Positions 6,318 through 46,953 of a stretch of 64,000 nucleotides of DNA are shown in pieces. Source of the DNA: a bacterium (GTDB taxonomy: Bacteria > JAAXHH01); NCBI GenBank assembly GCA_965203885.1, contig OZ241920.1, positions 449,476 to 513,475 of the forward strand, given 5' to 3'. The position numbers were made by a program, and so were the translations under genes. The notes below the pieces were generated by a model. That model did no database searches and was not told the DNA's origin. It saw nothing but the letters and a program-made list of their open reading frames with translations. Each line of letters opens with the position of its first letter. The stretch's first letter is position 1.

Positions 6318-6396
6318 CGCGGCGGCTCAGGGGTTCCGGTTTTCGGCGGCTCAGGGGTTCCGGTTTTCGGCGGCTCAGGGGTTCCGGTTTTCGGCG
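6318..6396. repeat. 24-bp direct tandem repeat x3 at a convergent gene junction
   Basis: cggcggctcaggggttccggtttt x3. It overlaps the last codons of the PIG-L gene. Confidence 0.85.
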
Positions 6397-9044
6397 GCCG
6401 GCTGCGCCAGGCCGATCAGGTTGGCGAACAGCCTCACGGCCCCGGGCACGCCCGCGGGCAGCTGGCGGAACCAGGCGTAGCCCGTGTAGATATATCGCCC
6501 CTTGCCGTAGCGGGCTTCGACGAGTCCGCCGGCCCTGGGCGTCTCCCCCGGGTCCTGCGAGGCCATGAGCGGCGTGTAGCGGGGATCCCATTCTCCCAGG
6601 AAATACAGGCCGCGTTCCTGCACCCACCCTTCGAAATCGGTGTCCGTGATCCGGTTGGGCCGGTTGAATACGGGATGGTCCGGCACCAGGATGTCCACCG
6701 GCGCGTCTTCCCGCGTAACCCGGTCGTGGGGACGGTTTATCCGGAAGGGGTAGGGTCCGTACCGGTCCCGGTTGAAGGCGTACTTGTTGTACTGGACGAT
6801 GTAGACGCCTCCCGCCTCCACGTAGTCCAGCAGGCGCCGGTTCACGGCGACGAGATCCGGCCGGACTTCGTAGGCGCGGATGCCCGCGATGATCAGGTCG
6901 AAGGCCCCCAGGTCCGCCGAAGACAGGTCCTCCTCCGTCAGCAGCCGCACCCCCACGCCCATCTGCTCCAGCACGAGCGGCACCTGGTCGCCGGTGCCCA
7001 TGATGTAGCCCACGCTCAGCCCGTCCGGCAGTTCGACGGGCGTGACCTGCACGGTGGAGGCCGCGTCGCGGTACAGGTGCCTGGGTTCGATATGGGGATA
7101 GGCGATCACTTCGTATCCCTCGCGGTACGTCTTCCCGCCGGCCCTCGCCACCGCCCGCACCTCGTGGGCGCCTTCCGGCGCGCCGCCTGCCGGGACGATA
7201 GTGAAGTTGAACGTGGCGGCCTGTCCCTTCCCGGCGAACGACAGGGGCACTTCCCCGGGCGCGACTTCCCAGCCGTCCGGCGCCTCGAGCGCCAGTCCGC
7301 CTTCGATCCCGCCGTTCACGTTGCTGACCACGGTCGCGCTGAAGCGCAGGGGGCTTTCCCGCCCGGCCGCGGCGACCGCGACCCGCGGGTCCAGCGTGAC
7401 CGACAGCGCAGGCACCACCTGGAGTTCGCGGCGGATTTCGCCGAAGGCCCGGTCGGCGAAACGGTACTGCGCGGGCCGGCGGATTTCGATCTCGACGCCG
7501 TCCACGAGAACCCGGGCCCGTCCGGCCACGGGCTGGGGGCTCCAGGGCAGACCGATCAGCGACGTATCGTCGACCACGACCCGCCGGTCGTTCAGGGAGC
7601 GCCGATGCCAGTAGGGCCGGGTGAGCCGGGCGTCGGGGGGAACGGATACCCACCAGTCGCTTCGCACGCTTTCATTGTAGCCGATTTCCGCGGCCGGCTC
7701 GATCGGTCCGGCCGGTTTGTTCGGGACCGGATCGGTCGTGGCGGACCATCCCCCGGGCACGTCCAGGCCGAGGTGGGTGACGCGGACGGTCCGGTTGCTG
7801 CGGTTCAGCAGTTCCAGGTTGATCCCGAGCGTGTCGCCCGGGACCACCCGGTCCTCGTAGGTCAGCACCTCGAAGGCCAGGCCGAGAGCCCGTGCCGCCA
7901 CGACGGCGAAATCTTCTTCCTTCAGATCGAGCAGAAAAAGGATATCGGCGAGGGTGCCGGCCGGAAGCGTGCTTCGATCGAGATCGTCGCGAAGGGCCCG
8001 GATCGTCTTCAGGCCTTCCAGCACGGGATCCAGCAGGGCGGGCGGGTCCAGCGGCCGGTAGGCTTCCACCGCCTCGCGGGCCAGCGCGTCCAGCCGGCCG
8101 AGCCGGGCGGCGAATCCCGGGATCGCTTCGGCATCCGGACCGGCCATGGCATGCAGCCGCATGAAGGTCGTGTCGAGGCCGTCGAAGAGGTGGCCGTCCC
8201 CTTCCGTATCCGTCATGCCCGCGCGGGCCACCAGCTTGATCTTCGTGGTCGCCGGTCCCTTCGGCTGGATGGTCCCCATGTCCTGCGACCGATGCATGCT
8301 GCGGCCCGCCAGGCCGAGTTCGCGGTAGGACCGGTCCAGCACGGAGCTGTACGTCCCCACGTCGACCACCAGGGAATCGATGCTGTCGAATGACGCGCGG
8401 GTGTTGTTGATGTACAGCTTGCGGGCCTGCCAGGGACGCAGCCCTTCCCGCAGGTGTTCCGGGAACCGTTCCGGGTCGGCCGCGGCGTGGAACGCTTCCC
8501 GCGTGATCCTCCCCGATGCCTGGTGATGGCCGTGGCCGTCGCGGGGCGAATCGGCGAAGACGGATACGATCACGTCGGGGCGAAAGCGCCGTATGACGCG
8601 CACCACGTCCGACAGGACCATCTCATCCCCGTTCCAGAAGTCCAGGGTCTCCTCGGCGGACTTGGAAAAACCGAAGTCGTAGGTCCGGGTAAAATACTGC
8701 AGCGCCCCGTCGAATCGGCGCGCTGCCAGCAGCTCTTCCGTCCGGATCACACCGATGGCGTCGTACAGTTCGGGTCCGATCAGGTTCTGGCCGCCCTCGC
8801 CGCGATTGAGCGACAGGTAGGCCGTCCGCGCGTGCAGGCCGCGGCTGACATAGGCGACCAGGGCGCTGTTCTCGTCATCGGGGTGGGCGCCGGTGTGCAG
8901 CAGGCTGGCGACGACCGGCAGGCGAAGGACCGCCTGGGCGAGCGTGGCCGTCCCCTTGCCGTCGGGCACGGGCCGGATGGGTCCGGCCTCGGCACGGGTG
9001 GCGGAGCAGGCAAGCAGGATACACAGGATCAGACGCATAGGCAT
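6375..9044 (-). CDS. secreted PIG-L/LmbE-family deacetylase fused to large C-terminal domains (GATase1/ThuA-like)
   Basis: 889 aa. Signal peptide MPMRLILCILLACSATRA. The LmbE-type HPDDE motif is in the N-terminal domain. Confidence 0.75.
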   Translation of the reverse strand: MPMRLILCILLACSATRAEAGPIRPVPDGKGTATLAQAVLRLPVVASLLHTGAHPDDENSALVAYVSRGLHARTAYLSLNRGEGGQNLIGPELYDAIGVIRTEELLAARRFDGALQYFTRTYDFGFSKSAEETLDFWNGDEMVLSDVVRVIRRFRPDVIVSVFADSPRDGHGHHQASGRITREAFHAAADPERFPEHLREGLRPWQARKLYINNTRASFDSIDSLVVDVGTYSSVLDRSYRELGLAGRSMHRSQDMGTIQPKGPATTKIKLVARAGMTDTEGDGHLFDGLDTTFMRLHAMAGPDAEAIPGFAARLGRLDALAREAVEAYRPLDPPALLDPVLEGLKTIRALRDDLDRSTLPAGTLADILFLLDLKEEDFAVVAARALGLAFEVLTYEDRVVPGDTLGINLELLNRSNRTVRVTHLGLDVPGGWSATTDPVPNKPAGPIEPAAEIGYNESVRSDWWVSVPPDARLTRPYWHRRSLNDRRVVVDDTSLIGLPWSPQPVAGRARVLVDGVEIEIRRPAQYRFADRAFGEIRRELQVVPALSVTLDPRVAVAAAGRESPLRFSATVVSNVNGGIEGGLALEAPDGWEVAPGEVPLSFAGKGQAATFNFTIVPAGGAPEGAHEVRAVARAGGKTYREGYEVIAYPHIEPRHLYRDAASTVQVTPVELPDGLSVGYIMGTGDQVPLVLEQMGVGVRLLTEEDLSSADLGAFDLIIAGIRAYEVRPDLVAVNRRLLDYVEAGGVYIVQYNKYAFNRDRYGPYPFRINRPHDRVTREDAPVDILVPDHPVFNRPNRITDTDFEGWVQERGLYFLGEWDPRYTPLMASQDPGETPRAGGLVEARYGKGRYIYTGYAWFRQLPAGVPGAVRLFANLIGLAQPAAENRNP

Positions 9045-9207: not shown

Positions 9208-10104
9208 TCAATCGTCCGGCAGCGCCCGGCGGTACAGCCAGAGGACGCCCGCCAGCGCGAGGAACAGGCCGATGAACATCCAGCCGAACCTGCGCCGGGT
9301 ATCGACCTCGGTGCGCGCGGTATCTACTTCTTTTCTGATATCCGGATAGATCTGTTCCAGCGAATCGACGACGGCGACCATTTTCTCGAGCACGAATACG
9401 TGGGAGGCCTGTTCGATATAGGCGTTCCGCGCCAGGGACGCCTGGTCCAGGATCAGGTCGACCGGGACGCCCGCGGCCCTGATCTCCTCTGCCTCCCGCC
9501 GGAATGCGTTGATCGGCTCGAGCCCCCGGTCCGATAGGGCGATGAAATCGTCCATGATTTCCTGCTCGTGGCAGTCTTCGCAGTTATCGGGAATGGAAAT
9601 CAGGGACGCCTGGGGATAGACCACTTCATGGTGATCGTGGCAGTCCACGCAGTTGGGCCAGAAATCCCCCTCGAGGCCATGGGGGCTGGGCACGTAGTTT
9701 ACCATCTGGACCTGGTGGCACTCGCCGCACAGTTCATGGACCACATAGGGGTCGGGCAGGCCCACAAAATCCCGTTCAAGATCGTGCGCCTCGTCCTCCA
9801 CCATGGTGGCGGGGTTCCCGCCGTGGCAGTCCTGGCAGGAGATGTCCGCGGGAAGGTGCGCGCTCCGCCGCCATTCGGCCACGGGCAGGCTCATGTCCTC
9901 GTCGTCCAGGCCGGCGTGACAGGTGACGCAGGTGTTGGTCGACGCGGCCGGTTGGGCCGCCGCGGGACCGGCGGCCGCCACGAAAAAGAACAACAGGGCC
10001 AGGAGGATGAGGGCCGTCAGCCCGGGGCGTTGCGCGGTCCGGTCCTGCAGGGCGGTACGCGGAACGTTCCCGGCGCCGTACCCGGCGTGCGTCCGTGCGC
10101 TCAT
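9208..10104 (-). CDS. pentaheme c-type cytochrome with C-terminal membrane anchor, subunit of a Rieske/cytochrome b complex
   Basis: Five CxxCH motifs (CVTCH, CQDCH, CGECH, CVDCH, CEDCH). An N-terminal signal/TM (LTALILLALLFFFVAAAGPAAA) and a C-terminal TM. Start assigned to the ATG at 10104 (MSARTHAGYG), which overlaps an upstream stop as ATGA. The track's longer start at 10242 lies inside a 77-bp duplication. Confidence 0.8.
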   Translation of the reverse strand: MSARTHAGYGAGNVPRTALQDRTAQRPGLTALILLALLFFFVAAAGPAAAQPAASTNTCVTCHAGLDDEDMSLPVAEWRRSAHLPADISCQDCHGGNPATMVEDEAHDLERDFVGLPDPYVVHELCGECHQVQMVNYVPSPHGLEGDFWPNCVDCHDHHEVVYPQASLISIPDNCEDCHEQEIMDDFIALSDRGLEPINAFRREAEEIRAAGVPVDLILDQASLARNAYIEQASHVFVLEKMVAVVDSLEQIYPDIRKEVDTARTEVDTRRRFGWMFIGLFLALAGVLWLYRRALPDD

Positions 10105-10255
10105 TCGTCCTCCCCGCCGTCCGTGGCCGGTCCGGCCGCCGGTTCCTCGACGGTCGCGATGGCATGGGTCCGTGCGCTCATTCGTCCTCCCCGCCGCCCG
10201 TGGCCGGTCCGGCCGCCGGCTCCTCGACGGTCGCGATGGCATGGGGCCAGCCGTA
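10101..10255. repeat. 77-bp tandem duplication spanning the cytochrome b stop / cytochrome c start junction
   Basis: Copy at 10101-10177 and copy at 10178-10254. The duplicate reproduces the last 22 codons of cytochrome b as a 26-codon mini-ORF (MSARTHAIATVEEPAAGPATDGGEDE) bounded by ATGA overlaps. Confidence 0.85.
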
Positions 10256-11377
10256 GATGTCGAAATGATACCTCGTGCCCAGGATGGTCATCTCCGTTTC
10301 AGAAACCTTGCCGAGCAGCGCAAGCACGATGTTCAGCACGATGAACAGGATGCCCAGGGAGGTCGCGACGGGACGGCGGGACGGCCTGCGGGCGGGCGTC
10401 CTGTCCCAGAAGGGCAGCAGGCAGATGGCCAGGACGACCAGGCCGGACCCGATGATGCCGATGGTCTTGGGCAGGTATTTCAAGGCCTGGTACGAGGAGA
10501 GGAAATACCATTCCGGCCTGACCCCGACGGGCGTATTGAAGGGATCGGCCTTCTCGTGCAGCGGCAATGGATAGTAGATGATCATGAGGATCATGGACAC
10601 CAGCACCAGGAGCACCACGATGAGTTCCTTCATGACGTGATGGGGATAGAAGGGCTTGCCGCCGGCTTTTTTGAGTTCATCCGGCGTCTTCTCCGGCACG
10701 TCGGTGCCCTCGAGGGGCGAAATGCCCTTGTACCGGATGAGGACCAGGTGTACGGCCACCAGGCCGACGAACACCCAGGGCAGCAGCACCACGTGTACCA
10801 TGAAGAACCGGGTGAGCGTCACGTCGGAGATGATCTCGCCGCCCCGCAGGAGGATCAGGAGATACTCGCCGACGACCGGGGTCGCGGCGGCGATTTCCGT
10901 GCCCACGGTGGTGCCCCAGTAGGACAACTGGTCCCAGGGCAGGAGATAGCCCGTGAAGCCGAAGGCCAGGGTCACGACCAGCAGGCCGAACCCGAAGAGC
11001 CAGGTTAGCTCCCTGGGTTTCTTGTAACCCCCGTAGAAGAAGACGCGGACCGAGTGCAGCAGCAGGAAGGCGATCATGAAGTTGGCGCCGTAGGAATGCA
11101 CCTGGCGCATGAGCCAGCCGAAGCGCACCTGCTCCATGATGTACCTGACGCTCTCGTAGGCCGTATCGGCGGAGGCCTCGTAATAGATCATCAGGAATAC
11201 GCCCGAGACGGCCTGGGACAGGAAGAACATCAGGGTGACCGTCCCGAAGGAGAACAGCCAGTTGAGATGGCGGGGCACGGGCTTGACCAGCTGGCGGCGG
11301 CAGAAATCGATGACGATCGATATTTCCACGCGGTCGTCGAGCCAGCGGTACAGCGCGTTGGACAGGCGTCTGATCAT
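10178..11377 (-). CDS. cytochrome b (fused b6 + subunit IV type)
   Basis: 399 aa with multiple TM helices. Conserved His ligands and the b/b6 PEWY-like region (RPEWYFL). Confidence 0.9.
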   Translation of the reverse strand: MIRRLSNALYRWLDDRVEISIVIDFCRRQLVKPVPRHLNWLFSFGTVTLMFFLSQAVSGVFLMIYYEASADTAYESVRYIMEQVRFGWLMRQVHSYGANFMIAFLLLHSVRVFFYGGYKKPRELTWLFGFGLLVVTLAFGFTGYLLPWDQLSYWGTTVGTEIAAATPVVGEYLLILLRGGEIISDVTLTRFFMVHVVLLPWVFVGLVAVHLVLIRYKGISPLEGTDVPEKTPDELKKAGGKPFYPHHVMKELIVVLLVLVSMILMIIYYPLPLHEKADPFNTPVGVRPEWYFLSSYQALKYLPKTIGIIGSGLVVLAICLLPFWDRTPARRPSRRPVATSLGILFIVLNIVLALLGKVSETEMTILGTRYHFDIYGWPHAIATVEEPAAGPATGGGEDE

Positions 11378-11423: not shown

Positions 11424-11924
11424 CTACGCCCCGATGATGATCTTGTCGTCGCTGACGGACAGTTCGACCGCGGTCAGGGGGCCGGGAATCGGTCCGCCCT
11501 GGACGCTGCCGTCCATGCCGAACTTCCCGCCGTGACAGGGACAGATCAGGCTCTGCGTTCCGCCCTCCCACTTGACGACGCAGCCCAGGTGCGGGCATAC
11601 GGCGTTGTAGGCGATGTACCCGTCGGACGTGTTTACCACGATGGTCGGCCGGCCCCGGTAGATCACCGTCCGGGACGTGCCCTCGGGAAGGGAGGCCCGG
11701 TCGATCTCGACCCGGTCGCCGCCTTCGGCTTCGGGGGGCGGTTCGATGTACCGGATGAGCGGATAGGCGGCCATCAGGAAACCGAGACCGCCCAGCGCGC
11801 CGAGGCACCTGCGCAGGAACCGGCGGCGGCGGACCGGGTCGGGACGCTTCTCGACGGGCGCTTTTGGGGGCTTCCCGGCGGGGACTTCGGACCCGGGTGG
11901 TTTCGGTGTAGAGGACATGTACAA
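11424..11924 (-). CDS. Rieske 2Fe-2S protein with Tat signal
   Basis: CPHLGC and CPCHGG cluster-binding boxes. Twin-arginine RRRFLRR followed by a TM segment. Confidence 0.9.
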   Translation of the reverse strand: MYMSSTPKPPGSEVPAGKPPKAPVEKRPDPVRRRRFLRRCLGALGGLGFLMAAYPLIRYIEPPPEAEGGDRVEIDRASLPEGTSRTVIYRGRPTIVVNTSDGYIAYNAVCPHLGCVVKWEGGTQSLICPCHGGKFGMDGSVQGGPIPGPLTAVELSVSDDKIIIGA

Positions 11925-11986: not shown

Positions 11987-12116
11987 CCAGTTTCGGGGCG
12001 ATCCGGGGCGTGCGCGCGCGCCTCGAATCGGCTTGACATATCGTGATAAAACCGCGACCTATACAGATACCATGGCCGCTTTACTATACAGAACGGTGGC
12101 CGCTTCAATATACAGC

Positions 12117-13121
12117 ATGGCGGCCGCTTCATTCAACAGAACGGTCCTGCCGCTCCTGGCCGCCGCAACCCTTGTGCACGTCCCCGGATGCGCCGCTTCC
12201 TCGCTCTCCGTCCGGTTCGACGTCTACCGGTCGCCCATGCTCGGCCTCCCCGGCGAAGACGGGAAGATCGCCCTGCTGGGATTCAACGGGACCGACCTGG
12301 CCCTGAACAACCTGACCGGGTACCTGCTGGCCCGCGCCCTGGTGTCGGAACCCACGCTGACGGCCATTGAAATGAGACCGGTGCTCCGGACGCTGTCCTT
12401 CCACGTCTATGAAGCCGGACAGGTCTCCGATTCTCTCGCGCTGCTCGTAGGCAGTGAAATAAACGCCGATGTCATCCTGGTGGGCGATCTCGAAAGGGCC
12501 TACACGCAAGCGTACGGGGAGGTCAAGGTCTTTCGGGAGGAGGAGGCCATGGAGGTGGGACTCGGCCGAACGGACATCAAGCTGTTCAACAAGTCCTACA
12601 TCGTGCCGCATATCGACCAGACGGCGGATATGACGGTTACGCTCAGGGCCTACGACGTCCGTTCGAACGAACTCCTCGGCCGCTATGCCGTAACGGAGAC
12701 TGCGTCCTATCGCACGGTGCTGTCCGATCCCATCGAATCACCGCCGCAAGAGGCGGTCTCCGTCGAGATCGTCTCGCCGGTGCTTGCCGAGGTCGTGGCC
12801 AGGCGCATCGTGGACCGGCTGATGGCCGCCATGGTAAGGGAACAGGTCCAGGTGACGCGGCGGCTGGTAGACACCGCCGACCGCCGGGCCGTCTCGGCGG
12901 CAAGAGAAGGACAATGGGCCCGGGCGGTGGCGATCTGGGAAGGCGCCGTGGAAGCGGACCCGGACGACGGGGCGTCGTGGAACAACCTGGCGGTCGCCTA
13001 CGAACGGTCGGGCCGGCGGTCCGATGCCGCGGCGGCCTACCGGAACGCCCTCTCTTCGCGTCCCCGCGACCGGTCCATACAGTCCAACATCCAAGCGTTC
13101 GGACTCCCCGCGGACCGCTAG
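12117..13121 (+). CDS. putative lipoprotein with C-terminal TPR-like repeats
   Basis: Lipoprotein-like signal MAAASFNRTVLPLLAAATLVHVPGC. The C-terminus has AVAIWEGAVEADPDDGASWNNLAVAYERSGRRSDAAAAYRNAL. Start chosen at the second ATG; 12072 is an alternative. Confidence 0.5.
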   Translation: MAAASFNRTVLPLLAAATLVHVPGCAASSLSVRFDVYRSPMLGLPGEDGKIALLGFNGTDLALNNLTGYLLARALVSEPTLTAIEMRPVLRTLSFHVYEAGQVSDSLALLVGSEINADVILVGDLERAYTQAYGEVKVFREEEAMEVGLGRTDIKLFNKSYIVPHIDQTADMTVTLRAYDVRSNELLGRYAVTETASYRTVLSDPIESPPQEAVSVEIVSPVLAEVVARRIVDRLMAAMVREQVQVTRRLVDTADRRAVSAAREGQWARAVAIWEGAVEADPDDGASWNNLAVAYERSGRRSDAAAAYRNALSSRPRDRSIQSNIQAFGLPADR

Positions 13122-15654: not shown

Positions 15655-15740
15655 CCGGCCGTGTCCGCCCGCGCCAGGCCGGGCCGCCCGCGCCAGGCCG
15701 TGTCCGCCCGCGCCAGGCCGGGCCGCCCGCGCCAGGCCAC
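15655..15740. repeat. 40-bp direct tandem repeat x2 (or 20 bp x4)
   Basis: ccgtgtccgcccgcgccaggccgggccgcccgcgccaggc occurs twice in tandem, immediately upstream of rnpB. Confidence 0.85.
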
Positions 15741-15827
15741 TTCCGGCCGTCCGGCAGTCATTTCTTCGGCCGCCGGGGTTGAACCGCGCCGCGTCCCTGG
15801 TTATATTGTAACTGTAAAACGTCCCAA

Positions 15828-16203
15828 GTCGTCCAGGCGATCGCGTTCGCCGGCAAGGCGGACGAGGAAAGTCCGAGCACCGCAGGGCGGGATGCCTGCT
15901 AACGGCAGGGGGCAGTGATGCCACGGAAAGTGTCACAGAAAACACACGGCCGATCCCTTCGGGGAGGCAAAGGTGAAAAGGTGAGGTAAGAGCTCACCGC
16001 GGTCCGGGTAACCGGTCCGGCAGGACAAACCCCATCCGGTGCAAGACCGAATAGGAGAGGAGAGACGGCCCGTCTCGACCGCCGGGAAACCGGAGACTCT
16101 CGGGTAAGGTCGCACGAGGCGGCTGGCGACAGCCGTCCCAGATAGATGATCGCCACCTTCACCGCGAAGGCACAGAACTCGGCTTACGGCCGGCTTGGAC
16201 GTT
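15828..16203 (+). ncRNA. rnpB: RNase P RNA, bacterial type A
   Basis: Conserved regions are present in order. CR-I GAGGAAAGUCCG. The P10-P12 block AAGGUGAAAAGGUGAGGUAAGAGCUCACC. CR-IV/V ACAGAACUCGGCUUA. P1 pairing between 15830-15838 and 16193-16201. An AT-rich patch (ttatattgtaactgtaaaac) lies just upstream. The ORFs overlapping this interval are spurious. Confidence 0.85.
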
Positions 16204-44481: not shown

Positions 44482-46953
44482 TCAACGTGCTTCGTCCAGC
44501 GTAGAAAGTAGTTTTTCAAGGGCGTTCTCACCCGAAGTCACCCGGAGTTCGATATCCACCGCGGCCAGGTGGTTGACGATGGCGTGGTCCGGCGGGATCC
44601 GTACGGCGTCCTTCTCCGTCGTGACGATGCATTCCGCGCCCGATCCTTCCGCCAGGGACACCGCCCGGTCCAGCTCGGAAGGGGTGAAGGGGTGGTGATC
44701 CGGGTAGGCCAGGACCCGGGTCACGCGTGCCCCGGCATCGGCGACCGTTCGCGCGAAGGAGGCGGGATTGGCGATACCGCAGAGGACAAGGACGTTGCGT
44801 CCGGCCAGCCACTCCACCGGCAGCGTCCCGTCGTCCGAAGACAGCGTCCCGTCGTCCGAAGACAGCGTCCCGTCGTCCACCAGCCGCCGCAGTCCCGCGG
44901 GGTGGTAGACTGTTTCGATCAGGGCCAGGTGGGGGAATTCGCCCTTGATGCGCGCCGTATCTACAACCGCGGAACGGGCCTGGTCCGTCCGTGTCAGGAC
45001 CAGTGCGTGTGCCCGGCCGAGCGAGGATGCCGGTTCGCGGAAGGGACCCGCCGGGAGCAGGCTCACGGGGGACAGCCGGTTGGACGCGTCGTGTACCACG
45101 ATGTCTATCTCGCGGCCGGTCCTCCGGTGCTGGAATCCGTCGTCCAGAATCAGCACGTCCGCGCCATGCCGGTCAATGGCCAGCCGTCCCGACGCGGTGC
45201 GGCTCGGGCCTACGATCACCGGCACGTCGGGAAGCGCCGAGGCCAGGAAGGCCGGTTCGTCGCCGACTTCCTGCCAGGTGGCGCCCGGTGCAGCGGCCCG
45301 GGTCGCGCGGGAGTTTCTTCCGTAGCCCCGGCTCAGGACGGCGGGCCGGTAACCGGCCTGCTTCAGCCGGCCGGTGAGGAATCGCACCACGGGCGTCTTG
45401 CCCGCGCCGCCCGCGGTCAGTGCGCCGACGCTGACCACTGGGACAGAAAGCCGGTCGGAATCCATCAACTTCATGTCGTACAGACAGTTGCGGAGCCTGA
45501 CCACCATACCCATCAGCAGGGACGGGGGGAGGAGCGCGGTGCGCATGAGACGAATGCCCGGGGCGCGCTCGCCGGGGTCCATCAGCCGGGTAATGAACGG
45601 GGTGCCTTGCGGGAAGCGCGACGGATAGCTCGACGAGTAACGCGATGTGTAACGCGGCAACCCGGATTCGCTTAGATCCGGGTCCAATATCCACCTGTCG
45701 ACCAGGTCCAGGGTGCGGTCCACGGCCCTCGAGCTTTCGCGTACGGCCTGGCCGGCGGCCGCACCCGTCCGCGCACGCTTCTGCGGGTCTTCCAGCAATT
45801 CGAGCCATTGCCTTGCGAGTTCGTCGCCGTCGCGTACGACCAGGCCTCCGCCGGTTCGCAGCAGGGCCGCCTCGCTTGCCCGGACGTTCTCGGTGTGGGG
45901 GCCGAACAGAACCGGTATGGAGCAGGCCGCGGGCTCCAGCAGGTTGTGCCCGCCGAGGGGGACCAGCGTGGCGCCGACGAAGGCCATGTCCGCGGCGGCG
46001 TACATGGCCGAAAGTTCGCCCATGGTGTCCAGGATGATTACATCGAAATGGACGGGGTCCCGCGTGTCCTGGCGGGTTCGGTGGGCGTACGCGAGTCCCG
46101 CCCCCCGCAGCATCTCCTCTACCTCCGGTACGCGGTTGAGATGCCGCGGCGCCCAGATCAGCCTTACCTCGGGATGCCGTTCGTGGACGCGGGCGAAGGC
46201 CGCCAGGACGGCTCTTTCCTCTTTCACGGGCCGGGGGCATCCCGCCATGATCACCGGTACGGACGCGGAGAGGCCGAGTTCACGGCGCAGCGCTTCTCGC
46301 CCGGGGCCCGCCTGTTCGGCGGCCAGGTCGAATTTTACGTTGCCCGTCACCCGCACCCGTTCCGGGTCCGCGCCATAAGCGATGAGCCGTTCACCGTCGA
46401 GCGCATGCTGGACACCCACGGCGGCCAGGCGCCGCAGCATGTGCCTGAACAGCGGTCTCACGAAACGGTTCCGCGCGAGACTGCGGTCCGACATGCGGCC
46501 GTTGACCAGGGCTACGGGGCAGTCGTGGGCGGCGGCCGCCTCGAGCATACCGGGCCAGAGTTCCCCCTCGAGCAGAATCAGTGCGCGGGGGCGTACCCGT
46601 CCGAATACGCGGCGGACGATGAACGGCGCGTCGAGGGGCGCCAGTCCGTGATACCGTGCCTGCCTTACATGCTGCCTGACATAGGCCAGGCCGGTCTCGG
46701 TCGTGGTGGTCACCAGCACGGCGAAACCGGGATGACGCTCCACGAAGCGGCTAACCACGGCCGCCAGGCCGGTGGCCTCGCCCACGGAGGCGCAGTGGAA
46801 CCAGACGACAGGGCGATTCTCGTCATCGTCGATTAGCGGCCGCTGGCCGAGCCGCTGGCGCATCCCGTAGCAGTCCAGGATGGACAGGCAGGCCAGGACC
46901 GGAGAGAACAGCACGGTCAGCGTGGAATAGAGCAGGATGTAGATTAAGTTCAT
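44482..46953 (-). CDS. bifunctional Kdo transferase (WaaA/KdtA) - tetraacyldisaccharide 4'-kinase (LpxK) fusion
   Basis: The N-terminal half has the WaaA signature WFHCASVGE. The C-terminal half has the LpxK P-loop VVSVGALTAGGAGKTP. The linker contains DDGTLSSDDGTLSSDDGTL from an in-frame 21-bp x3 repeat (about 44820-44880). Confidence 0.85.
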   Translation of the reverse strand: MNLIYILLYSTLTVLFSPVLACLSILDCYGMRQRLGQRPLIDDDENRPVVWFHCASVGEATGLAAVVSRFVERHPGFAVLVTTTTETGLAYVRQHVRQARYHGLAPLDAPFIVRRVFGRVRPRALILLEGELWPGMLEAAAAHDCPVALVNGRMSDRSLARNRFVRPLFRHMLRRLAAVGVQHALDGERLIAYGADPERVRVTGNVKFDLAAEQAGPGREALRRELGLSASVPVIMAGCPRPVKEERAVLAAFARVHERHPEVRLIWAPRHLNRVPEVEEMLRGAGLAYAHRTRQDTRDPVHFDVIILDTMGELSAMYAAADMAFVGATLVPLGGHNLLEPAACSIPVLFGPHTENVRASEAALLRTGGGLVVRDGDELARQWLELLEDPQKRARTGAAAGQAVRESSRAVDRTLDLVDRWILDPDLSESGLPRYTSRYSSSYPSRFPQGTPFITRLMDPGERAPGIRLMRTALLPPSLLMGMVVRLRNCLYDMKLMDSDRLSVPVVSVGALTAGGAGKTPVVRFLTGRLKQAGYRPAVLSRGYGRNSRATRAAAPGATWQEVGDEPAFLASALPDVPVIVGPSRTASGRLAIDRHGADVLILDDGFQHRRTGREIDIVVHDASNRLSPVSLLPAGPFREPASSLGRAHALVLTRTDQARSAVVDTARIKGEFPHLALIETVYHPAGLRRLVDDGTLSSDDGTLSSDDGTLPVEWLAGRNVLVLCGIANPASFARTVADAGARVTRVLAYPDHHPFTPSELDRAVSLAEGSGAECIVTTEKDAVRIPPDHAIVNHLAAVDIELRVTSGENALEKLLSTLDEAR

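Follow-up and report, generated by a model that had tools for sequence, protein, structure and literature searches.

In the 64,000-nt stretch of contig OZ241920.1 analysed in this study (the window, or WIN as an allele), the junction between the cytochrome b gene and the c-type cytochrome gene of a bc-type respiratory operon carries a 77-bp tandem duplication. The duplication is confirmed as real and strain-polymorphic. An exact-protein look-up for independent assemblies of the same species-level population gave, together with the window itself, 11 alleles; the duplication was found in five of these (WIN, L001, L002, L088 and L085), and a single copy in the other six (L003, L083, L084, L087, L090 and L092). 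Copy number varies within the population, as in a variable number tandem repeat (VNTR), and we consider it quite probable that the locus is a two-copy minisatellite of this type, lying across the cytochrome b stop and the cytochrome c start and nearly neutral in its effect.

The original prediction of a tandem duplication of the cytochrome b end and its ATGA junction was borne out. A search of the window with the 77-mer, allowing up to three mismatches, found only two adjacent copies, both on the minus strand and identical at 75 of 77 positions, where 100 dinucleotide shuffles gave an expectation of 0.00. The repeat consists of the following parts:

10168-10244, minus strand: repeat copy A, 77 bp, with the cytochrome b tail, the TGA/ATG overlap and the first 14 nt of a cytochrome c-type start (0 mismatches to the query).
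10091-10167, minus strand: repeat copy B, 77 bp, the body of a mini open reading frame (mini-ORF), ending with the true cytochrome c start (2 mismatches; 75/77 identical to copy A).
10084-10090, minus strand: GCACGCC, within cytochrome c codons 5-7, a diverged third copy of the CCATGCC junction motif.

The two copies lie head to tail without a spacer, at an identity far above chance, as tandem duplicates do. They differ at GAG/GAA (10220 versus 10143) and GGC/GAC (10197 versus 10120), and the longest stretch identical between them is 29 nt. Tandem Repeats Finder reported a single array at 10084-10245 (period 77, 2.1 copies, 95% matches, no indels, score 296); the count of 2.1 arises because GCACGCC at 10084-10090 resembles the unit start CCATGCC at 5/7 positions. 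The single-copy alleles L003, L083 and L084 have CCATGCC where the window has GCACGCC. The predicted period of 77 bp was correct, and the predicted span of 10101-10255 was slightly offset from the true repeat at 10091-10244. The predicted content also held, with a small correction. The unit does include the end of cytochrome b and the ATGA; its exact composition is the last 64 coding nt of cytochrome b, the stop codon and 10 more nt. It thus contains the GGAGG motif and the ATGA at which stop and start overlap, and it reaches 14 nt into cytochrome c.

The genes on either side of the repeat, and the one preceding them, are as follows:

11424-11918, minus strand: Rieske [2Fe-2S] subunit gene, first in the operon (Pfam PF00355, E 8.9e-13).
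10178-11377, minus strand: cytochrome b gene, 399 aa, ending in ...HAIATVEEPAAGPATGGGEDE before the stop (Pfam Cytochrome_B, PF00033, 4.2e-56; Cytochrom_B_C, PF00032, 5.2e-17).
9208-10104, minus strand: cytochrome c gene, 298 aa, with five CxxCH motifs (Pfam Paired_CXXCH_1 / Cytochrome_C7, PF09699/PF14522).

Transcription on the minus strand runs through the Rieske gene, cytochrome b, a 26-codon ORF and the c-type cytochrome; the adjacent, co-oriented genes for a Rieske protein, a cytochrome b with both N- and C-terminal domains and a haem c protein identify the operon as bc-type. The gene order is kept in L001-L003. A 164-aa Rieske gene was called at the matching place in L001 and L002, an identical version of the window's cytochrome b protein is encoded on other contigs, and L003 encodes an identical cytochrome c protein directly behind cytochrome b. 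The last 64 coding nt of cytochrome b and its stop fall within copy A; as predicted, it is the second copy in plus-strand order that closes this gene. At its N terminus the cytochrome c protein has a basic tail; a hydrophobic segment with an AAA-Q motif comes next, and a second hydrophobic segment is C-terminal. Its gene is followed by one for an 889-aa protein with a PIG-L domain (6375-9044, minus strand).

Between cytochrome b and cytochrome c, the duplication creates a short reading frame with its own start and stop overlaps:

10101-10181, minus strand: chimeric mini-ORF of 26 codons, peptide MSARTHAIATVEEPAAGPATDGGEDE, an intact frame between cytochrome b and cytochrome c.
10178-10181, minus strand: first ATGA overlap, cytochrome b stop and mini-ORF start, read from the sequence.
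10101-10104, minus strand: second ATGA overlap, mini-ORF stop and cytochrome c start, likewise read from the sequence.
10186-10190, minus strand: GGAGG, a Shine-Dalgarno (SD)-like motif 4 nt upstream of the mini-ORF ATG.
10109-10113, minus strand: the duplicated GGAGG, 4 nt upstream of the cytochrome c ATG.
10240-10242, minus strand: internal ATG of copy A, the start of a spurious 344-aa ORF (9208-10242), with no SD-like motif upstream.

The 26-aa peptide had been predicted correctly, as had the overlap of its TGA with the conserved cytochrome c ATG. The mini-ORF joins five codons of the cytochrome c start (MSART) to 21 codons of the cytochrome b tail (HAIATVEEPAAGPATDGGEDE). Both junctions read GAATGA, with stop and start sharing 4 nt in the same-strand NTGA overlap that is typical of pairs coupled at -4 nt, and the upstream context common to both ATGs is ggcggggaggacgaATGAGCGCACGG. 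The ancestral arrangement, in which the cytochrome c ATG starts one base ahead of the cytochrome b TGA (A-TGA), imposes a simple rule on duplications that span it: the ORF opened by the first ATG follows the cytochrome b frame in the second copy only if the length of the duplication equals 2 mod 3. Because 77 equals 2 mod 3, the mini-ORF reads copy B in the cytochrome b frame and stops on the cytochrome c ATG. The frame relations also explain, as had been proposed, a misleadingly long N-terminus of cytochrome c. The 344-aa ORF starts at an ATG of copy A that only the duplication brings into frame with cytochrome c (61+77 = 138 nt); in one-copy alleles the same ATG is out of frame, and the long N-terminus is therefore spurious. 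It was the 'first ATG after a stop' rule that produced the 344-aa ORF as an artefact.

Every allele with a fully sequenced copy B (WIN, L001, L002 and L088) has an intact mini-ORF; in L085 a scaffold gap interrupts the frame. The changes within the mini-ORF are few and non-synonymous: a G is replaced by D, and in L002 a V by G, the latter from a private T-to-G substitution in copy B. No Pfam family matched the peptide. Because of the missing family match and the non-synonymous changes, the peptide is probably without function.

The alleles with two copies come from assemblies of different samples. L001 (1.22-Mb contig, sample ERZ26693420), L002 (1.08-Mb scaffold, SAMN12291211) and L088 (SAMN12290325) share the junction of the window; the string ACGGAC/CCATGCCATCGCG is accordingly found in four assemblies, each with identical copy-B substitutions, and two of the four have it on contigs >1 Mb. 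L085 (SAMN12290088) has at least two copies with another junction, ACGGAC-GCACGCC-ATCGCG, and a copy B identical to copy A, after which a 100-N gap follows. The two junction strings are GGACCCATGCCATCG and GGACGCACGCCATCG. Flank divergence is about 0.1-3% among the eight closest alleles; the most divergent alleles (L087, L090 and L092) are single-copy, and the crown group mixes one-copy and two-copy alleles. In the Logan contigs L086 and L089, the first base lies exactly 30 nt ahead of the point at which the two continuations after GCGCACGGAC part. We take the Logan graph to be built with k=31, in which case 30 nt is k-1, and these start points indicate that the repeat branch is present in the reads, as a k=31 graph would mark it. 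In the short-read scaffolds L085 (about 1400-1500) and L091 (about 1320-1420), 100-N gaps stand exactly at the junction; the cytochrome b/c junction systematically breaks short-read assemblies, in the form of scaffold gaps and Logan contig ends.

The single-copy alleles point to the way in which the duplication may have formed. In L003, L083 and L084, an 8-bp direct repeat, CCCATGCC, occurs at two sites exactly 77 bp apart, in the cytochrome b tail (W-P-H-A) and in cytochrome c codons 5-7 (T-H-A), that is, at the boundaries of the unit; in L087 and L092 the repeat is imperfect. Such a pair of sites is a textbook substrate for slippage and for unequal recombination. We infer from this arrangement that replication slippage or unequal recombination between these short direct repeats would have produced the tandem duplication. 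The slippage origin that had been proposed is supported, with recombination as a second possible route.

Copies also appear to be lost. Removing exactly 77 bp from the window gives the sequence of L003, and the two show no other difference nearby. Its left flank, on the cytochrome b side, differs from that of the duplication-bearing L001 at 1/1120 positions, its right flank, on the cytochrome c side, differs from that of WIN at 1/740, and four-taxon informative sites favour the grouping of WIN with L003, against L001 with L002, by 11:1:0. Because both flanks match duplication-bearing haplotypes, L003 is nested inside them; the best interpretation of this allele is a recombinant or a secondary deletion of 77 bp. 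Collapse of a two-copy genome by the assembler was considered for L003 and rejected, since its junction string GACCCATGCCGGG is absent from the window-type sequence; the string is also found in L083, and the matching GACCCATGCCGGT in L084. The two junction types and the nested one-copy allele imply more than one event, and the locus appears to behave as a small VNTR with gain and loss.

The duplication regenerates an intact 3' end of cytochrome b and an intact 5' end of cytochrome c, and both genes survive because the unit carries the whole junction: the cytochrome b tail, the GGAGG and the ATGA. Cytochrome b is unchanged. Cytochrome c keeps its native context from -63 to +14, save for the two differences between the copies, and still has an upstream reading frame that ends on its start codon at -4 nt. 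Ribosomes that finish cytochrome b, or that bind at the duplicated GGAGG, would translate the 26 codons, terminate on the cytochrome c start codon and re-initiate there. Translation would then be relayed through the mini-ORF and coupling would be kept, as originally proposed; that the mini-ORF is translated at all is suggested by its initiation region, which is the same as that of cytochrome c. A structured RNA at the repeat was also considered and rejected: the fold was no more stable than shuffled sequences (z = +1.76 for two copies and +0.76 for one), and Rfam gave no match in the repeat region.

The duplication is most likely near-neutral. It would be tolerated because it heals itself and lies in a little-constrained stretch, formed by the C-terminal tail of cytochrome b and the probable n-region of the cytochrome c signal peptide, and copies would be gained and lost within the population in a genome prone to tandem duplication. 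The adjoining part of cytochrome c is itself rich in length variants. A cluster of cytochrome c sequences at 90% identity contains 11 members of 228-324 aa, the 228-aa entry coming from the gapped scaffold L091, and the allele lengths are 273, 298, 306, 307, 308 and 324 aa. All of the length differences fall in the basic N-terminal tail (about 10010-10090 in the window), before the hydrophobic segment and the AAA-Q motif:

L001, L002 and L085: 27 bp x2, in frame.
L088: 30 bp x2, in frame.
L083: 39 bp x3, in frame.
L087: 24 bp x2, in frame.
L090: 75-bp deletion, apparently between CGGACG repeats.

These tail repeats are independent of one another. The sequence ...AGPAAA-QP... after the tail resembles a signal-peptidase site. 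If a signal peptide is cleaved there, the tail may represent its n-region and would then be free to vary.

Tandem arrays are frequent in the rest of the window as well, with about 19 distinct short arrays in 64 kb, many of them perfect. Arrays whose period is divisible by 3 lie within stop-free, coding-like frames with high GC at third codon positions, often near gene ends, and those with other periods are placed at genes or between them. The pattern suggests that the genome as a whole is prone to tandem duplication. Far from being an isolated curiosity, the junction duplication belongs to a large set of tandem indels in a hypervariable stretch of a repeat-rich genome.

Several of the arrays can be placed relative to other features. 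Those with 100% identity are at 2425-2484 (30x2), 6320-6398 (24x3.3), 15657-15738 (39x2.1) and 44821-44878 (21x2.8). The perfect 24-bp array at 6320-6398 straddles the 3' end of the PIG-L-domain gene, and the perfect 39-bp array at 15657-15738 ends about 90 bp upstream of a bacterial RNase P RNA of class A (15825-16201, plus strand; Rfam RF00010, 273.7 bits). Just upstream of the Rieske/cytochrome b/cytochrome c operon, at 12059-12145, is an imperfect array of 24 bp x3.6 (CTATACAGAACGGTGGCCGCTTCA); it sits between the operon and a divergent plus-strand ORF and may be promoter-proximal. At 59573-59912 and 60995-61144 on the minus strand, 72-bp repeats encode units of 24 aa, the usual size of a leucine-rich repeat; they lie in a stop-free frame of about 4.1 kb (57860-62008) that probably encodes a large repeat protein.

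A comparison of orthologous loci, proposed originally as a check, was performed to investigate the distribution of the duplication. The closest genome matches for cytochrome b (84-94% identity) were metagenome-assembled genomes labelled Gemmatimonadota, Gemmatimonadetes or 'Candidatus Latescibacterota'. Isolate names such as IRC1_bin_16 and SB0665_bin_8, together with the PANK22-1 sample labels, suggest sponge metagenomes, and the source of the window is an uncultured, Gemmatimonadota-like bacterium that probably lives in association with sponges. All 18 related species examined (L004-L021) and three related metagenome contigs (L093-L095) have one copy and keep the GAATGA overlap. Since all of the relatives examined are single-copy with GAATGA, the overlap is an ancestral feature that has been conserved, and the duplication is limited to a single species-level population. 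A scan of the metagenome contig collection for the exact 22-mer of the junction, GAGGACGAATGAGCGCACGGAC, gave 0 matches, and a protein-based scan of the same collection found only three close relatives, all single-copy. No junction-spanning tandem repeat was seen in a crude screen of about 60 cytochrome b loci of other lineages. The screen gave a single in-frame tandem repeat of 30 bp, in L100, where it lies in the C-terminal tail of a cytochrome b from another lineage (70% identity; about 644-724), with the units GESKTPSDEK and GESETPSDET; the cytochrome b tail tolerates repeats elsewhere too. In L007 and L012, the N-terminal region of cytochrome c (the first ~100 nt after the cytochrome b stop) looks repetitive by eye, with units like GGCA.A.CGGG.GCGGGCG, and the screen found no repeat there of >=15 bp at >=90% identity.

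Three other explanations of the duplication were weighed. It is very improbable that the tandem copies are an artefact, produced by mis-assembly or by the stitching together of strain variants from genomes that really have one copy. Short-read assemblies are fragile at this site, as the gaps in L085 and L091 and the broken Logan contigs illustrate; the window junction with its copy-B substitutions nevertheless recurs across the four assemblies described above, including the two on contigs >1 Mb, and L002 has acquired a substitution of its own in copy B. The 29-nt stretch shared by the copies is short enough to be resolved by ordinary assemblers. With the duplication in five independent assemblies, and with one-copy alleles assembling cleanly in other samples of the same studies, the artefact that was named at the outset as a possible refutation fails. 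Extremely improbable is the insertion of a mobile intercistronic repeat of the kind known as the mycobacterial interspersed repetitive unit (MIRU), in place of a local duplication. The size of 77 bp, the intercistronic site, the variation in copy number and the internal ORF coupled at -4 nt all recall such units (PMC12548453, PMC3184786). The unit is, however, built from the ends of the flanking genes, and the tail HAIATVEE... and the cytochrome c start are conserved in single-copy relatives. RNA structure gave no sign of terminal or internal inverted repeats, and neither the 77-mer search nor blastn-short found a further copy of the unit in the window, the best other match being 17 nt.

Selection for the duplication as an expression device is unlikely. 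The copy number of the unit would then act as a reversible switch or tuner of the cytochrome c : cytochrome b ratio, in the manner of a contingency-type VNTR, or else the peptide would be functional. The abundance of the duplication among the sampled alleles is in favour of this, as are the intact mini-ORF in all fully sequenced duplication alleles and the repeated change implied by two junction types and at least one probable loss; an extra step of termination and re-initiation would also plausibly alter cytochrome c output (PMC12548453). Against it, the duplication is absent from the 18 related species, the three metagenome relatives and the divergent alleles L087, L090 and L092, and only one or two copies are found, with no graded series. 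The few changes in the mini-ORF are non-synonymous, as expected without constraint, its peptide has no family match, and the neighbouring stretch and the window are full of apparently neutral tandem indels. A further reading, which we consider distinctly unlikely, is that the locus represents the early birth of a MIRU-like, coupling-competent intercistronic repeat, or a reversible switch that tunes cytochrome c against cytochrome b output and is kept in the symbiont population because gain and loss are frequent.

Some observations weigh against the preferred reading of a near-neutral VNTR with relayed translation, or limit its detail. The sample is small, at only 11 alleles, and the 100-N gap inside the array of L085 limits the count and phasing for this allele to at least two copies; it could be a strain chimera. 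The order of events can be reconstructed in two ways, either of which fits. GCACGCC and CCATGCC at the third position of the motif represent two synonymous differences in cytochrome c. In one history, the duplication formed at the 8-bp repeat and two synonymous substitutions followed; in the other, register-shifted deletions came after the duplication, and CCATGCC is the synonymous scar of these deletions. Outgroup states at the third motif are divided: L004, which is the nearest species, agrees with the duplication alleles in reading ACT CAC GCC, and CAT is found in other species and in L092. As for the copy-B states, GAA is common in other species, and GAC is common within the population in the cytochrome b tail. 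Translation of the mini-ORF and re-initiation at cytochrome c would follow from the anatomy of the junction. In a crude first-ATG test of the window, SD-like 4-mers were found upstream of 13/60 long ORFs, compared with 14% of random sites; because SD use looks weak in the window, the role of the duplicated GGAGG is uncertain.

The near-neutral VNTR has several consequences. It indicates that an out-of-frame duplication of 77 nt in an essential respiratory operon can be harmless because it spans a stop/start overlap, and it shows one simple route by which coupled intercistronic mini-ORFs and MIRU-like units can arise. It accounts for the misleading 344-aa cytochrome c call, and also for the gaps and breaks that short-read metagenomes show here in scaffolds and contigs. 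One versus two copies, together with the length variants of the cytochrome c tail, provide a strain marker for the symbiont population. The junction duplication is a modest polymorphism of a known kind and not a new mechanism, and it leaves the knowledge of translation and of bc complexes unchanged.

In its origin, the locus is comparable to the products of replication slippage. In bacteria, slippage gives rise to short tandem duplications and deletions flanked by microhomology, and inside operons such events are mostly in frame or disruptive. The head-to-tail copies, the 8-bp direct repeat at the unit boundaries in single-copy alleles and the reversibility are all of this type, and similar events have occurred next door, including the 75-bp deletion apparently between CGGACG repeats. 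The 77-nt duplication differs in being out of frame and yet harmless, because it spans the stop/start junction.

In its architecture, the locus resembles coupled gene pairs. Among coupling architectures, the -4 nt NTGA overlap occurs most often, and a downstream gene can have ribosomes 'delivered' to it by a short ORF (PMC12548453). Both junctions here are of the ATGA type, between co-oriented genes of one operon, with an overlap conserved across the clade. Unlike in an ordinary pair, the partner of cytochrome c is now a 26-codon filler ORF and not cytochrome b, so that coupling would proceed in two steps in series. Synthetic bicistronic designs, which are reportedly due to Mutalik et al. 2013, offer an engineered parallel. 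In these designs, the gene of interest receives its ribosomes from a short leader cistron (PMC12548453). As in them, a short upstream cistron holds the SD of the downstream gene and ends on an overlapping stop and start; the mini-ORF differs in being natural, in having come from a duplication, and in being placed within an operon and not at the 5' end of one.

The closest analogue is the MIRU. MIRUs are intercistronic units of 40-100 bp, often in tandem and variable in copy number, with an ORF coupled at -4 nt to its neighbours (Supply et al. 1997, via PMC12548453 and PMC3184786). They form a dispersed family of about 40-50 loci per genome, with start codons as their presumed insertion sites; as the ORF ends overlap the stop and start of the neighbours, translation downstream is hardly affected by an insertion (PMC12548453, PMC3184786). 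The 77-bp unit is likewise intercistronic, tandem and strain-variable, and its ORF overlaps the stop and start of both neighbours. It departs from MIRUs in that it is not dispersed within the 64-kb window, where the absence of further copies led us to reject a dispersed element; in that it is not foreign, being made of the cytochrome b tail and the cytochrome c start of the flanking genes; and in that the duplicated unit is absent from all related species examined. In sum, the locus would work like a MIRU or a synthetic bicistronic leader, yet it is a local duplication of a gene junction.

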